From UHGV virus genome UHGV-1362809: 64,000 nucleotides of DNA; one strand, written 5' to 3'. Source of the DNA: a virus. Shown here piece by piece: positions 17,982 through 21,399 of this stretch. Position 1 is the stretch's first letter, and the number at the start of each line of letters is the position of its first letter. Under the pieces are notes generated by a model. It did no database searches, was not told the DNA's origin, and saw only the letters and a list, made by a program, of their open reading frames with translations. Made by a program: the position numbers and the translations under genes.

Positions 17982-19379
17982 CTAAGATAAATCTTTATAG
18001 GAGTTCCACCAAGTACCCTTTTGTTTGTCGTATTCATTATTGTATTTTGCATACTGCTCGTATCTCTGCTTACGATCCAAAGGTTTGTAAGCGTTCTTAC
18101 GAGCTTGTGCAATAATATCCCATACTCGCCTACAAGTAGCGGACGCCATTTTATAACGAGGTGATTCCCCATTTTTACCACGTCTTAATCCTGGAAATAA
18201 CTCATACGTCATCAAGGACCTTAAACAACCAAGCGACTGGGAAAGACCGTCTATGAACACTCTTATCACAGGCTGTCTTTTACCTGCATAAGGGGTACAA
18301 ACACGGTTTGCCAACTGATAGAAAAACGGACTTCCTACGGGTTGGGGGTTTGCCGACATCGGTGTTTGGATATAAATACAACTTGGTGCTCGGATATCTA
18401 TACCTTCCTTGACCATACTGCGTACCGCTACAATTACACGATGAATCCCTTGGTCTGCTTTATCAAGAATATCTTTACGATTACATCCCGAATAAAACCC
18501 TGCTACGAAGTTTCTCCAATCAATGGACTCACCATTTAAGAGTGTACCTTTACGAGCCAACTTTTTAGCTTTTTTCCTAATCATTTCAACCAGTAGATTC
18601 ATGTGTTTTTTATGGTCGGTAGGAATCAAAATACACTTATGTCCTGCATTTATATCTCTAAATACCTGATTAACAATTAGTTTGTTGCGCTCTGCACTGG
18701 AATATAACCATTTCATAGCATATACCCAGTTTCCAGGACCACTTCCCTTGTACTTAGTTGTACACACCCCTGTTTCTGTAATATCCACAATAGGAACCAT
18801 ACCTATTGCACTTGATTTAGCCACAATGGGACCTACAATTTCCTTAATAAGACAATCTCTGCCATCTTTTCTTAAAGGAGTCGCTGATAGTCCCAAACGA
18901 TATTTCATCACCAACTTATTGACAAACTTAGCAAATGAAACTGCAGCTGCTCCGTGGACTTCATCTAAAATTAGAAAAGAGTATCTACCATTTATATATT
19001 TTTTGATACGTTTGTCGCCACTCTCTCTAATAAATTTTTGGTATGTAACAAGGGCTACCTGTAGATTCTTCATCTCCTTAACGTCCTTTACTACCTTGAC
19101 AATCGGATGACCAAGTTTTTTCTCAATTTTTGGAACATTAGTCATCGACATAAAGGTCTTGTAAAAGTTGTTAAGAAACTCTTCCTGTTTTGCAATTACA
19201 ATGGTCTTTACCCCAATTTTGCAACAACAAAAAACAGACATCACTGTATTATGAGAAATTAATCCATTAGCATAATAGTCGTGATACTTAGGGACGGTTA
19301 GATCAAAAACAGGAGACAAGAAATCATTAAAAATAATACTGCTAACCTTAGATTCTGTTTTATTTAGTTTGACTAACAT
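17982..19379 (-). CDS. SF2 DExH helicase (UvsW/ResIII-like) C-terminal fragment beginning with a ~44-aa split-intein Int-C
   Basis: N-terminus ...VFDLTVPKYHDYYANGLISHN then +1 Thr completing the P-loop (…GK|T). LILDEVHGAAA (DExH), LGLSATPLRKDG (motif III), VKEGIDIRAPS (motif VI-like). Confidence 0.8.
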   Translation of the reverse strand: MLVKLNKTESKVSSIIFNDFLSPVFDLTVPKYHDYYANGLISHNTVMSVFCCCKIGVKTIVIAKQEEFLNNFYKTFMSMTNVPKIEKKLGHPIVKVVKDVKEMKNLQVALVTYQKFIRESGDKRIKKYINGRYSFLILDEVHGAAAVSFAKFVNKLVMKYRLGLSATPLRKDGRDCLIKEIVGPIVAKSSAIGMVPIVDITETGVCTTKYKGSGPGNWVYAMKWLYSSAERNKLIVNQVFRDINAGHKCILIPTDHKKHMNLLVEMIRKKAKKLARKGTLLNGESIDWRNFVAGFYSGCNRKDILDKADQGIHRVIVAVRSMVKEGIDIRAPSCIYIQTPMSANPQPVGSPFFYQLANRVCTPYAGKRQPVIRVFIDGLSQSLGCLRSLMTYELFPGLRRGKNGESPRYKMASATCRRVWDIIAQARKNAYKPLDRKQRYEQYAKYNNEYDKQKGTWWNSYKDLS

Positions 19380-20907
19380 TTTCTTTCCCTTAATTTATTT
19401 ATAGCCTTTACTATACTATTTACACAATGGGGTCTGTTATAGTTCCAATCATATTCCCATATATAAAATACATTATAACCCAATTTTTTTAGCTGCTGTT
19501 CTCGTAGCTTGGTATTTTTATTAAGCATATAGGCAGTTTTAGTAGAAGTAAAACAACATCTTTTTCTAGGACTAAAAAGTTTCAAGTTTCCATGAAAATG
19601 GTCGCCATAAAATTCTAATACAATACCATACTTTTTATTAAATCCATCTACAAACAAATTATCTATTTGATATTCAGGAATAAACTTAAGCCTTGTCTTT
19701 TTGGATATTAAATTAATAAAATCTAAACCCATAAAGGAGGCTTTTCCTACTCTATCACACACCACGCACTTTTGAATATCTTTATGTATAAAGTACTGCT
19801 GTATAACATATTTATCTGTACCGCACCTTTTACATTTTAAATGTACTTTGTCTAAAAATCCTGTATACTCTTTTCCAAATACCTTAAAATTGGCATTTCT
19901 TTCTATTGCCTCCTTGAAAGCCTTTTTATTTAGTAGCACAACTGCTTTATTCCTTTGCACAGCTGCGTTACGCTTGTTGCATATACATCCATAAGTAAGG
20001 TGTTTATACCAAGAAGTAATTTTCCAACATTTACATTTTTTACAGTACACAGCTATAGGGGCATCTATACCAACATAATCCGATATATGCGAGTAATCAT
20101 ACCTACTACCATGTTTTTGTCTAGCCTTCTTTAATAAATCCTTAAGATTATTTTTTATATAAGCATGCGCTGGACTATTGTCCCTTCTACACAAGGGACA
20201 CACAAACAGACCATTTCTATCGCCTTCTAATAAATGACAAGGAAGTACTCTATAGTCTACATTATGTACTGTACAAGTAACAATTACAGGAGTAAATTCG
20301 TCTACATACTCAACCTTATCAAATGATAATTTTCGTCTATAAAGACTTTTACATTTCTTTATTAAAAGGGCAGTATTCATTTTATTCCAACAGGATTTCC
20401 AAGCAAGGTAAAACACTTTTGTAAAATGGGTTCTAATTCTTTATTAGCTATACTAACACTATCCTTATCTAGAAATAGTATTTTGTACACACCCATAACT
20501 ACCGATAAATCATAAAAATTATCTGGAAGTATATAGTGTGAATTATGTTCTAACTCATCAGCTATTTTACTGCATACATCAAAGTTAGCTACTGGAATTT
20601 CTGGTATAGACTGGGTTGATAAACACAAGGAATCATTAGTTGTTATGTCTTTTAACTGCTTCCATTCTCCATTGTTTACCCACATTCTGTGCTCTGGTGT
20701 ACCTTCTACTGTAAAACCATCTTCTGTGACAATCTTAACAGTTTTAGATTTAGACCTGAACAAATGAGATACTTTATTAACACCTTCCTTACCAAATACC
20801 TGTATATTATCTACAGGTACAGTAATATCTTCTGGTATATTTCCTACTACGTCACCAATTTTACGAATTTTATTATTAGCAACAATAAGAGTATCGTAAA
20901 CCTGACA
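19248..20907 (-). mobile_element. fractured-gene arrangement: split intein (Int-N ~20380-20907, Int-C ~19248-19379) with free-standing HEG (19373-20416) between the halves, inserted at the helicase P-loop
   Basis: When joined, the two extein ends give AQPRSGK+T (Walker A). Int-C ends in HN; Int-N starts with Cys. Confidence 0.75.
19373..20416 (-). CDS. free-standing homing endonuclease between the split-intein halves: Cys/His Zn-finger repeats plus C-terminal Vsr/DUF559-like (EDxHD-type) nuclease domain
   Basis: C-terminus YGIVLEFYGDHFHGN...REQQLKKLGYNVFYIWEYDW. The likely true start is MNTALLIKK, immediately after the stop of the upstream Int-N ORF. Confidence 0.7.
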   Translation of the reverse strand: MFYLAWKSCWNKMNTALLIKKCKSLYRRKLSFDKVEYVDEFTPVIVTCTVHNVDYRVLPCHLLEGDRNGLFVCPLCRRDNSPAHAYIKNNLKDLLKKARQKHGSRYDYSHISDYVGIDAPIAVYCKKCKCWKITSWYKHLTYGCICNKRNAAVQRNKAVVLLNKKAFKEAIERNANFKVFGKEYTGFLDKVHLKCKRCGTDKYVIQQYFIHKDIQKCVVCDRVGKASFMGLDFINLISKKTRLKFIPEYQIDNLFVDGFNKKYGIVLEFYGDHFHGNLKLFSPRKRCCFTSTKTAYMLNKNTKLREQQLKKLGYNVFYIWEYDWNYNRPHCVNSIVKAINKLRERKC

Positions 20908-21399
20908 CTTCCCGCTACGGGGCTGAGCATTAATCAAACCAAATTTATACTTTAAATAATCCTTAGTAATAGTCACTTGGTCTGCAGTGGGAAACCCATT
21001 TACCTTTTCACCATGTCTTAAAGTACCAGTAAACTTGATTGGATAATCAAACTTATTCTCTGGTCTAACGTCCTTTACTTTGGATAGGTCAATACCAAAC
21101 AACCTTTTGATTTTAAAGGCATTTCCAACAGGAACATATACATATTGTACGCCTTTGACCTTTTTTACACCCCAAGTTCTTAGTTTGGTAATAAATCCCT
21201 CACAACCTTGGGCACAAACAGAACAAGGTCTATCGTGGAAATATTCACATTTAGAACATATTGCGTCATCAAACTGCAACACTTCATAGTTTTGCTTTAA
21301 GACATTAGGGTCAACGTCTTTTTTTGGTATGTACAACTTATCTTTAATAACGGGAACTGGTTTCATTTTTGAATCACATATTATCAATAGGACGGTCAA
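20377..21399 (-). CDS. SF2 helicase N-terminal fragment (Zn-ribbon, Walker A ...AQPRSGK) followed by split-intein Int-N (~100-aa Hint block plus ~75-aa extension)
   Basis: GLINAQPRSGK|CQVYDTLIVANNK...TPEHRMWVNNGEWKQLKDI (intein blocks A/B), then stop. Confidence 0.8.
   Translation of the reverse strand: MTVLLIICDSKMKPVPVIKDKLYIPKKDVDPNVLKQNYEVLQFDDAICSKCEYFHDRPCSVCAQGCEGFITKLRTWGVKKVKGVQYVYVPVGNAFKIKRLFGIDLSKVKDVRPENKFDYPIKFTGTLRHGEKVNGFPTADQVTITKDYLKYKFGLINAQPRSGKCQVYDTLIVANNKIRKIGDVVGNIPEDITVPVDNIQVFGKEGVNKVSHLFRSKSKTVKIVTEDGFTVEGTPEHRMWVNNGEWKQLKDITTNDSLCLSTQSIPEIPVANFDVCSKIADELEHNSHYILPDNFYDLSVVMGVYKILFLDKDSVSIANKELEPILQKCFTLLGNPVGIK

Follow-up and report, generated by a model that had tools for sequence, protein, structure and literature searches.

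The 64,000-nucleotide stretch of DNA analysed here (virus genome UHGV-1362809, hereafter the window) belongs to a metagenomic contig of 237 kb (ENA ERZ27229744 k119_39996). Positions 17982-21399 of the window are occupied by three consecutive open reading frames (ORFs) on the minus strand, and together they form a DNA helicase gene broken by a split intein, the two halves being separated by a free-standing gene for a putative homing endonuclease (Table 1). When genes were called independently on the parent contig, the outcome was products of 329, 335 and 465 amino acids (aa), labelled by Pfam as Intein_splicing, DUF723 (weakly) and ResIII, respectively. The genes are interlocked at their ends: the N-half closes with GGA ATA AAA TGA, the stop codon of which overlaps the ATG of the endonuclease gene as ATGA, and the endonuclease gene closes with TGT TAG within ATGTTAG, where the ATG is the start of the C-half, an overlap of 7 nt. 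A preliminary description, made from the letters of the DNA alone, had let the first two ORFs begin at TTG 21399 and GTG 20416, which are the starts of the longest possible ORFs. The start codons are most likely ATG 21366 for the helicase N-half (MKPVPVIK) and ATG 20380 for the endonuclease (MNTALL), since these are precisely the first residues of the database proteins P0004 and P0001.

Table 1. Positions of the fractured helicase gene and its parts in the window, and of intein-rich loci in relatives (the latter numbered on their own contigs)
Feature	Positions	Strand	Basis or remarks
ORF1, helicase N-extein and N-terminal intein fragment (Int-N)	21366-20377	minus	
ORF2, free-standing putative homing-endonuclease gene, 335 codons and stop	20380-19373	minus	ORF list, parent-contig gene call
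ORF3, C-terminal intein fragment (Int-C) and helicase C-extein	19379-17982	minus	
Helicase N-extein, 153 codons, MKPVPVIK...GLINAQPRSGK	20908..21366	minus	Cys-rich N-terminal region; end inside Walker A
Int-N splicing core, ~98 codons, CQVYDTLI...TPEH...DSLCLST	20614..20907	minus	
Int-N C-terminal tail, 78 codons and stop, QSIPEIPV...LLGNPVGIK	20377..20613	minus	
Endonuclease N-terminal region, three Zn-ribbon (DUF723-like) repeats	19760..20368	minus	PF05265, phrog_681, repeat pattern against homologs
Endonuclease C-terminal nuclease domain, predicted Vsr-like fold, residues ~203-321	19418..19774	minus	
Int-C, 44 codons, MLVKLNK...VFDLTVPKYHDYYANGLISHN	19248..19379	minus	Blocks F and G, terminal His-Asn
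Helicase C-extein, 421 codons and stop	17982..19247	minus	First residue +1 Thr; DEVH and SAT motifs
Whole insert, putatively mobile: Int-N, tail, endonuclease gene, Int-C; 1660 bp	19248..20907	minus	Comparison with intein-free allele
Intein-rich relative locus, L005	7431-9755		
Intein-rich relative locus, L005	10436-13222		
Intein-rich relative locus, L007	5932-9222		
Intein-rich relative locus, L008	9386-12025		
Intein-rich relative locus, L012	7077-9534		Cut at locus end

A helicase gene interrupted at its P-loop

Both outer ORFs carry the marks of an intein, the Pfam family Intein_splicing recognizing its N part on ORF1 (E 6e-8) and its C part on ORF3 (residues 11-44, E 3e-4). The N-extein stops at GLINAQPRSGK and gives way to Cys1 of Int-N (CQVYDTLI), with TPEH as block B, and Int-C ends in VFDLTVPKYHDYYANGLISHN (SHN), followed by Thr. 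All the features of a class 1 intein are present (C154 in CQVYD, TPEH, VFDLTVPKYH...LISHN and the +1 Thr) and are kept in five loci. Int-N counts 176 aa with its tail. By BLASTP both fragments match the contiguous intein that Vibrio phage GR7B carries at the same site, Int-N with E 1e-5 and Int-C, against the C-terminus of that intein, with E 9e-7. Splicing in silico at GK/T (here and below the slash marks a splice junction) yields a 574-aa protein in which PRSGK/TV is restored and which aligns end to end with the helicase of Dickeya phage JA29 and with the GR7B exteins.

The host gene is a helicase of superfamily 2 (SF2). ResIII matches the C-half (E 7e-10), which is also assigned to phrog_16 (DNA helicase), and the C-extein contains LILDEVHG and LGLSATP. 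In tblastn searches the two halves match adjacent parts of one jumbo-phage gene, exemplified by JA29_158 of phage JA29 (536 aa, 'putative DNA repair helicase'). The earlier supposition that the N- and C-fragments belong to one contiguous helicase family is confirmed by this colinear alignment and by agreement with a natural uninterrupted allele, P0004, described below. A phmmer search of that allele against the PDB sequences returned archaeal and eukaryotic XPB/Rad25 helicases (E 2e-7 to 5e-5) and, weakly, 7clg, which is named only 'Putative helicase' (E 0.005). UvsW was not among these matches and the label UvsW-like was rejected; of the preliminary assignment to a UvsW/ResIII-like helicase, the SF2/ResIII part holds, with XPB/Rad25 as the nearest solved relatives, and in sequence the protein stands nearer to XPB/Rad25 than to UvsW. 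A near-identity DNA search of the phage collection gave no match, and the window phage has no cultured close relative there; a search of viral contigs for related loci with the C-half gave no confirmed relatives.

As the window comes from a metagenome assembly and a contiguous intein does exist at this site in GR7B, one may wonder whether frameshift errors of assembly or sequencing have merely broken up a contiguous intein with a nested endonuclease. This is scarcely credible: the same C-half protein is present on 4 contigs and a 99%-identical endonuclease on another; the endonuclease is encoded in a different frame with its own ATG; and the three-ORF layout, with the stop after the tail and the overlap with Int-C, recurs in the related loci L008-L011 and L013, which come from unrelated samples. 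A sequencing frameshift was thus rejected on the grounds that the same ORF structure is found in independent contigs and in divergent lineages, and the architecture first proposed for the locus (an SF2 helicase whose halves, parted by a split intein in Walker A, flank a free-standing gene for a Vsr-like endonuclease, as described by Dassa et al.) is borne out.

The window harbours a second split intein, in the gene for NrdD (5715-8293, minus strand). Its N-half of 273 aa (7472-8293) comprises an ATP-cone, an NRDD domain and an Int-N that ends in NDELASL and has no tail, and its C-half of 566 aa (5715-7415) starts with MKILSMEKVQELSDVYDIEVPKYHNFSLTCGLFVHN/C; the two are separated by a mere 56-bp gap and no endonuclease gene lies between them. 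The intein blocks of NrdD and of the helicase are related, with 41% identity between the Int-N cores around block B and a common VPKYH motif.

The empty allele and the states of the site in relatives

The homolog search retrieved P0004, an uninterrupted helicase of 574 aa whose N-extein (residues 1-153) is 100% identical to that of the window and which equals the predicted spliced product but for one residue, C237 in P0004 and Y in the window, an agreement that goes far beyond chance. Its contig, L004, comes from a close relative of the window phage: blastn alignments give 94.7% identity upstream and 97.7% downstream of the insert, and window positions 20908-19250 are missing from it with a clean break, which corresponds to the 1660-bp unit within 2 nt of the codon boundary. 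DNA of the L004 type reads CCCCGTAGTGGAAAA and ACAGTGATG on the two sides of the insertion point. The exteins of the two phages are 98.5% identical, and since 25 of the 26 differences (in 1725 nt) are synonymous, they are by this measure under purifying selection. Three of the changes sit side by side: the three codons directly 5' of the insertion point, AGT GGA AAA in L004 and AGC GGG AAG in the window, each bear a synonymous change, a clustering at the junction with P ~1.6e-4 against a background of ~1 change per 100 nt. We read these codon changes as a homing footprint, left by a short co-conversion tract or by escape of the target site; such a footprint cannot tell gain of the element from its loss.

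The same comparison bears on the idea that the helicase is a dead, fractured pseudogene, its unspliced halves being non-functional or joined in a non-covalent complex. Splicing is predicted and the Int-N fragment is unusually long, which leaves this idea some room. It is nonetheless very improbable, for the splicing residues are all intact (Cys1, TPEH, the terminal HN and the +1 Thr), the extein differences from L004 are nearly all silent, and the arrangement is kept with intact ORFs across lineages at 30-50% identity; moreover, an unligated P-loop could not bind ATP because the break falls inside Walker A.

Relatives of the window phage hold the same site in a variety of states. The nearest homologs of the endonuclease, P0007 and P0008, are 40% identical to it and are encoded, in unrelated samples, within the same layout of three genes, P0007 on 19 contigs that include L008, L009 and L010; L011 shares the layout. 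The endonuclease gene between the split halves is intact in L008, L009, L010, L011 and L013, in the last of which it is a DUF723 gene of 429 aa. Orthologues at 35-40% identity take the same position in L008, L011, L013 and L007, and in this last locus the N-half, the tail and the endonuclease are fused as a single ORF of 666 aa. L005 has the break in the intein at the same point, with a spacer of only 65 nt and no endonuclease gene; a 44-aa ORF replaces the endonuclease in L012 (17 contigs, up to 207 kb) and a 112-aa ORF does so in the P0158 loci, both read as decayed endonuclease genes. L006 has no intein, and phage GR7B has a contiguous intein of 443 aa at the identical position (PPRSGK/CVVEGT...RVHN/TVM). 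A search with a profile of the N-halves added about a dozen further split N-halves and some 16 uninterrupted helicases of ~500 aa. PRxGK/C and SHN/T are common to all the loci read, and in all those bearing an endonuclease its 3' end overlaps the start of Int-C, by 7 nt in the window and by 10-26 nt in the relatives; in L011 a spacer of 105 nt precedes the endonuclease gene.

Several of these genomes are rich in inteins. The GR7B gene itself, GR7B_00070 (L002 3366-6239), deposited in GenBank as a 957-aa 'hypothetical protein', is a ResIII/SF2 helicase bearing its contiguous intein in the P-loop. The helicase C-half of L005 contains a second, contiguous intein of LAGLIDADG type at the DExH box (IVDE/C...GN/CH), and an intein with a LAGLIDADG_3 domain is also present in the DnaB-like helicase of each of L005, L007, L008 and L012. 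The fractured helicase locus of L008 is also found in L009, an 11-kb contig (JAEHJW030005437.1) of the NCBI assembly GCA_016276955.3, and is presumably phage DNA inside that deposited genome assembly.

When loci are compared two by two, the identities of extein, intein and endonuclease co-vary in 10 pairs out of 10 (e.g., 39/37/40, 47/49/50 and 76/55/55), which indicates a long-standing association of the three parts. Co-inheritance predicts just this, and it could be argued that the endonuclease is no longer an active homing agent, that the element is vertically inherited and frozen, and that L004 represents an old polymorphism or a precise loss; the decay or loss of the endonuclease gene in some lineages while the split intein persists would suit such a history. 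We hold it to be decidedly unlikely. The window endonuclease retains every residue that is invariant in its family, and its gene is tightly coupled to its neighbours by overlapping stop and start codons; precisely this element is missing from a near-identical genome (98.5% in exteins); the synonymous changes are clustered at the insertion point; and an exact loss of 1660 bp of DNA would itself imply recombination with an empty allele.

A further question is which DNA the endonuclease would recognize. According to the model of Dassa et al., it may target the intein gene and not the helicase, and so home into split inteins without an endonuclease such as those of L005 and L012. Such inteins with the same break point do exist, the A-rich stretch around the Int-C start (ATGTTAG/ATGTTAA) differs little between loci that have the endonuclease gene and loci that lack it, and the invasion of inteins was proposed by these authors (PMC2677866). 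In this case the intein itself would depend for its spread on a lost LAGLIDADG endonuclease or on co-conversion. Yet the sole polymorphism available between close relatives, window versus L004, involves the whole composite element; the footprints lie at the P-loop codons of the helicase, not inside the intein; and no near-identical split allele without endonuclease was found for the lineage of the window. Both the intein as target and such a mode of spread are possible but somewhat unlikely.

The endonuclease and the tail of Int-N

The family of the endonuclease is very large (6650 cluster representatives at E<=1e-3), and its members bear Zn-ribbon repeats in variable number, three in the window protein. 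The N-terminal region of the latter has Cys-containing repeats, a PF05265 annotation (DUF723-type) and a match to the phrog_681 endonuclease; NUMOD was not found in this region by Pfam. Arrays of DUF723/CapR Zn fingers are the DNA-binding modules of other phage homing endonucleases (PMC10448857), and by analogy the repeats are presumed to be the DNA-binding array of this one. The C-terminal domain has the family consensus VDGY...YEFxGDxWHGNP...T..RE...GYxVxxIWExDW. An AlphaFold2 (AF2) model of residues 194-335 is confident (mean predicted local distance difference test, pLDDT, 91; predicted template-modelling score, pTM, 0.81), and in this model the domain has a Vsr-like catalytic fold, its best structural match being the Neisseria protein 3hrl, not I-Bth0305I. 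Searched against the PDB sequences, a 37-sequence profile of the domain found E. coli Vsr alone, weakly (E ~0.15) and in the register of the catalytic core, and did not find 3r3p, the structure of I-Bth0305I; phmmer with the endonuclease gave only noise.

Five residues of the nuclease domain were noted (D245, E256, D260, H263 and E309), and the family-invariant ones are all retained in the window. D245 and H263, the equivalents of Vsr D51 and H69, are invariant or nearly so in the family, and E256, aligned with Vsr F62 in the profile register, is invariant in 37 sequences out of 37; an invariant Glu at the Vsr Phe62 position was noted in the Vsr-like family by Dassa et al. (PMC2677866). An acidic residue near the D97 position (E294 in the window) occurs in 24 of the 37 sequences, and the N-terminal acidic position, D220 in the window, is variable. 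For comparison, the composite motif of I-Bth0305I consists of E170, D196, N208, H213 and D222, which correspond to Vsr E25, D51, H64, H69 and D97 (PMC3239194). We predict from these residues and repeats that the protein works like a Vsr-like homing endonuclease, and we leave it outside the I-Bth0305I family.

Other endonuclease-like genes lie close by on the minus strand. One of 414 aa, free-standing and directly downstream of the helicase C-half (16718-17962), has DUF7487 repeats, a match to phrog_3339 ('homing endonuclease') and a C-terminal region with DFYLP...YIEYNGSWTHGG...GLRHIEFW; most of it (17828-16760) is absent from L004. A second DUF7487 gene (24053-25243, 396 aa) stands between the DNA polymerase and the next gene, its nuclease part aligning weakly and in register with the Vsr-like profile (domain E 0.006), and a 71-aa fragment (25230-25445) resembles the C-terminus of such a gene; the whole segment 23936-25833 is absent from L004. 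An N6/N4 DNA methyltransferase that is intact in L004 (266 aa) appears to be broken in the window (14564-16277 region, minus strand) into pieces of 77 aa (15070-15303, with a DPPY motif) and 154 aa (14564-15028), beside a 306-aa ORF (15357-16277) that is largely specific to the window, 16207-15532 and 15470-15401 being absent from L004. The genes of the window are tightly packed in general, stop and start codons overlapping or abutting (21360-21380, 20375-20395 and elsewhere), and several starts, e.g., that of the helicase N-half (TTCAAAAATG), have no obvious Shine-Dalgarno sequence. The minus strand carries nearly all of them as far as ~61.2 kb, where orientation and GC skew switch.

The splicing core of Int-N is followed by a tail that is found in every split N-half of this intein family, with no insertions or deletions and with the same end point. 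Within an 11-member subfamily its mean pairwise identity is 0.45, where the splicing core reaches 0.55 and the N-extein 0.68, and because of this conservation the tail is, as far as its sequences tell, constrained and not drifting. LAGLIDADG_3 is the sole Pfam family that recurs across the tails, weakly (5 of 14 tails, best E 0.018); on the tail of the window itself Pfam gave no match. A hidden Markov model (HMM) of the tail, run against the nested endonuclease regions of the GR7B and DnaB inteins, reached 2.3 bits at best, a score equalled by 11 of 1000 shuffles, and because this test is not significant the likeness to LAGLIDADG block E that one sees by eye cannot be claimed on sequence. A tail profile run against the PDB sequences hit designed armadillo repeats only, at ~4.7-4.9 bits per repeat, which were rejected as artefacts. 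Of five AF2 models of the tail one is confident (pLDDT 82.5), and its ten best matches include PI-PkoII, I-Tsp061I, a second WhiA entry and the TliVMA intein. The position of the tail, moreover, is that of the nested endonuclease in inteins, and a large nested domain is present in the intein that occupies this site in GR7B. Taking together the Pfam matches, the model with its ten best matches, the position of the tail and the nested domain of GR7B, the best reading is that the tail is probably the remnant of half a LAGLIDADG domain. The preliminary description had offered a remnant endonuclease or a linker; the former is probable, with its LAGLIDADG-like character, and the latter sits badly with a tail kept in every split N-half. 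It is tempting to speculate further that the tail serves a long-lived, stable tripartite element, either in the association or folding of the fragments or in DNA binding at the homing site, a proposal that we regard as rather doubtful. Were it true, the fractured state would be evolutionarily stable rather than a fleeting intermediate, and one homing endonuclease would have replaced another inside an intein and co-opted part of the enzyme that it replaced.

A fractured gene and its known counterparts

We consider it well supported, with a probability of roughly 0.8, that the locus is a fractured gene for an XPB/Rad25-like SF2 helicase in a phage genome of ~237 kb, interrupted at GK/T by the 1660-bp element. 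The anatomy and colinearity of the genes, the intact catalytic residues, the purifying selection on the exteins, the empty allele with the junction footprint, the folds, and the recurrence, decay states and co-divergence in relatives give this reading its direct support. The three ORFs would be co-transcribed and translationally coupled via their overlapping stop and start codons; the N-half (N-extein and Int-N) and the C-half (Int-C and C-extein) would associate through the intein fragments, and their trans-splicing would yield the 574-aa helicase with an intact P-loop. The endonuclease would bind DNA by its three Zn-ribbon repeats and, during co-infection, cut the cognate empty allele with its Vsr-like nuclease domain, after which recombinational repair would copy in either the whole element, into intein-free helicase genes, or the endonuclease gene alone, into split inteins that have none. 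As for the history of the element, we infer that a canonical intein with a nested LAGLIDADG endonuclease may first have held the site, as GR7B still shows, and that a free-standing endonuclease gene then invaded the nested domain, splitting the intein and leaving a half-LAGLIDADG remnant of ~80 aa on Int-N.

Several points weigh against this reading. Trans-splicing and DNA cleavage are inferred rather than observed in experiment. Int-N measures 176 aa, compared with 88-105 aa in the characterised natural split Int-N fragments of the Dassa set (PMC2677866), the difference being due to the conserved tail of ~78 aa. Upstream of their endonuclease genes the Dassa loci have a spacer of 27-51 nt with a hairpin (PMC2677866), a usual trait of the class though no defining one, whereas the window has no non-coding spacer or hairpin there and instead the ATGA overlap. 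The equivalents of Vsr E25 and D97 are loosely conserved in the endonuclease family. Finally, the close co-divergence of endonuclease, intein and extein fits mostly vertical inheritance, and active homing may be rare.

The site has nevertheless much to offer. Its series of states (empty, contiguous intein, split with the endonuclease intact, fused, decayed or absent) represents the stages of the gene-breaking model of Dassa et al. in one system, and the conserved LAGLIDADG-like tail provides evidence on the displacement of a nested endonuclease gene by a free-standing one. The near-identical empty allele of L004 is directly usable as a substrate in assays of homing-site cleavage and trans-splicing, and the family, a source of new natural split inteins that join at a +1 Thr and bear an uncommon accessory tail, may furnish orthogonal tools for protein ligation.

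Among known homing endonucleases, the I-Bth0305I/EDxHD family (Taylor et al. 2011; PMC3239194; PDB 3r3p) resembles the window protein in having a C-terminal nuclease behind an N-terminal DNA-binding region and conserved equivalents of Vsr D51 and H69, and an additional Glu, invariant at the position of Vsr F62, is common to it and EDxHD (Vsr-like) homing endonucleases. I-Bth0305I, however, has two NUMOD-2/helix-turn-helix motifs in the place of the three Zn-ribbon repeats (DUF723-like) of the window protein, the two show no sequence-level match even by family profile, and conservation at the equivalents of E25 and D97 is not strict; the likeness proposed in the preliminary description is thus upheld for the Vsr fold and the extra Glu, and fails for the DNA-binding region and at the level of sequence. 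Repeated Zn-finger modules at the DNA-binding end of a modular free-standing phage endonuclease have been described by Barth et al. (2023; PMC10448857), whose arrays (CapR/DUF723/DUF4397) are joined to a T5orf172 nuclease and not described inside inteins, whereas the array of the window is joined to a Vsr-like nuclease and lies inside a split intein. The GR7B intein shares with the window a homologous helicase, an identical insertion point (PPRSGK/C...VHN/T) and homologous splicing blocks, but is encoded in one 957-aa ORF as an unsplit 443-aa intein with a nested domain and no free-standing endonuclease gene.

The closest counterparts are the fractured genes of Dassa et al. (2009, NAR 37:2560; PMC2677866), exemplified by gp41-1, NrdJ-1 and IMPDH-1, in which N-extein with Int-N, endonuclease gene and Int-C with C-extein follow one another on the same strand as in the window. 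They further share with the helicase locus an overlap of the endonuclease 3' end with the start downstream of it, a Vsr-like nuclease, an origin in phages and a host gene of DNA metabolism. Their gp41-7, without an endonuclease gene, is paralleled here by the related locus that has none. A 2025 preprint on actinobacteriophage inteins treats Vsr-like endonucleases only in the split-intein context of Dassa et al. and favours the same invasion model. The host gene differs, being an XPB/Rad25-like SF2 helicase split inside Walker A, outside the eight enzyme types of the Dassa set (PMC2677866), in agreement with the earlier remark that it was not among the described cases; a limited search of the later literature gave no report of an SF2 helicase host of this kind, nor of a split intein with such a tail. 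The locus of the window also has, unlike those of Dassa et al., a complete genome context and a near-identical empty allele to be compared with. It is accordingly not a new kind of system; it is a further member of the class of fractured genes known since 2009, to whose hosts it adds an XPB/Rad25-like SF2 helicase, split at the P-loop and found, unusually, in a complete phage genome.

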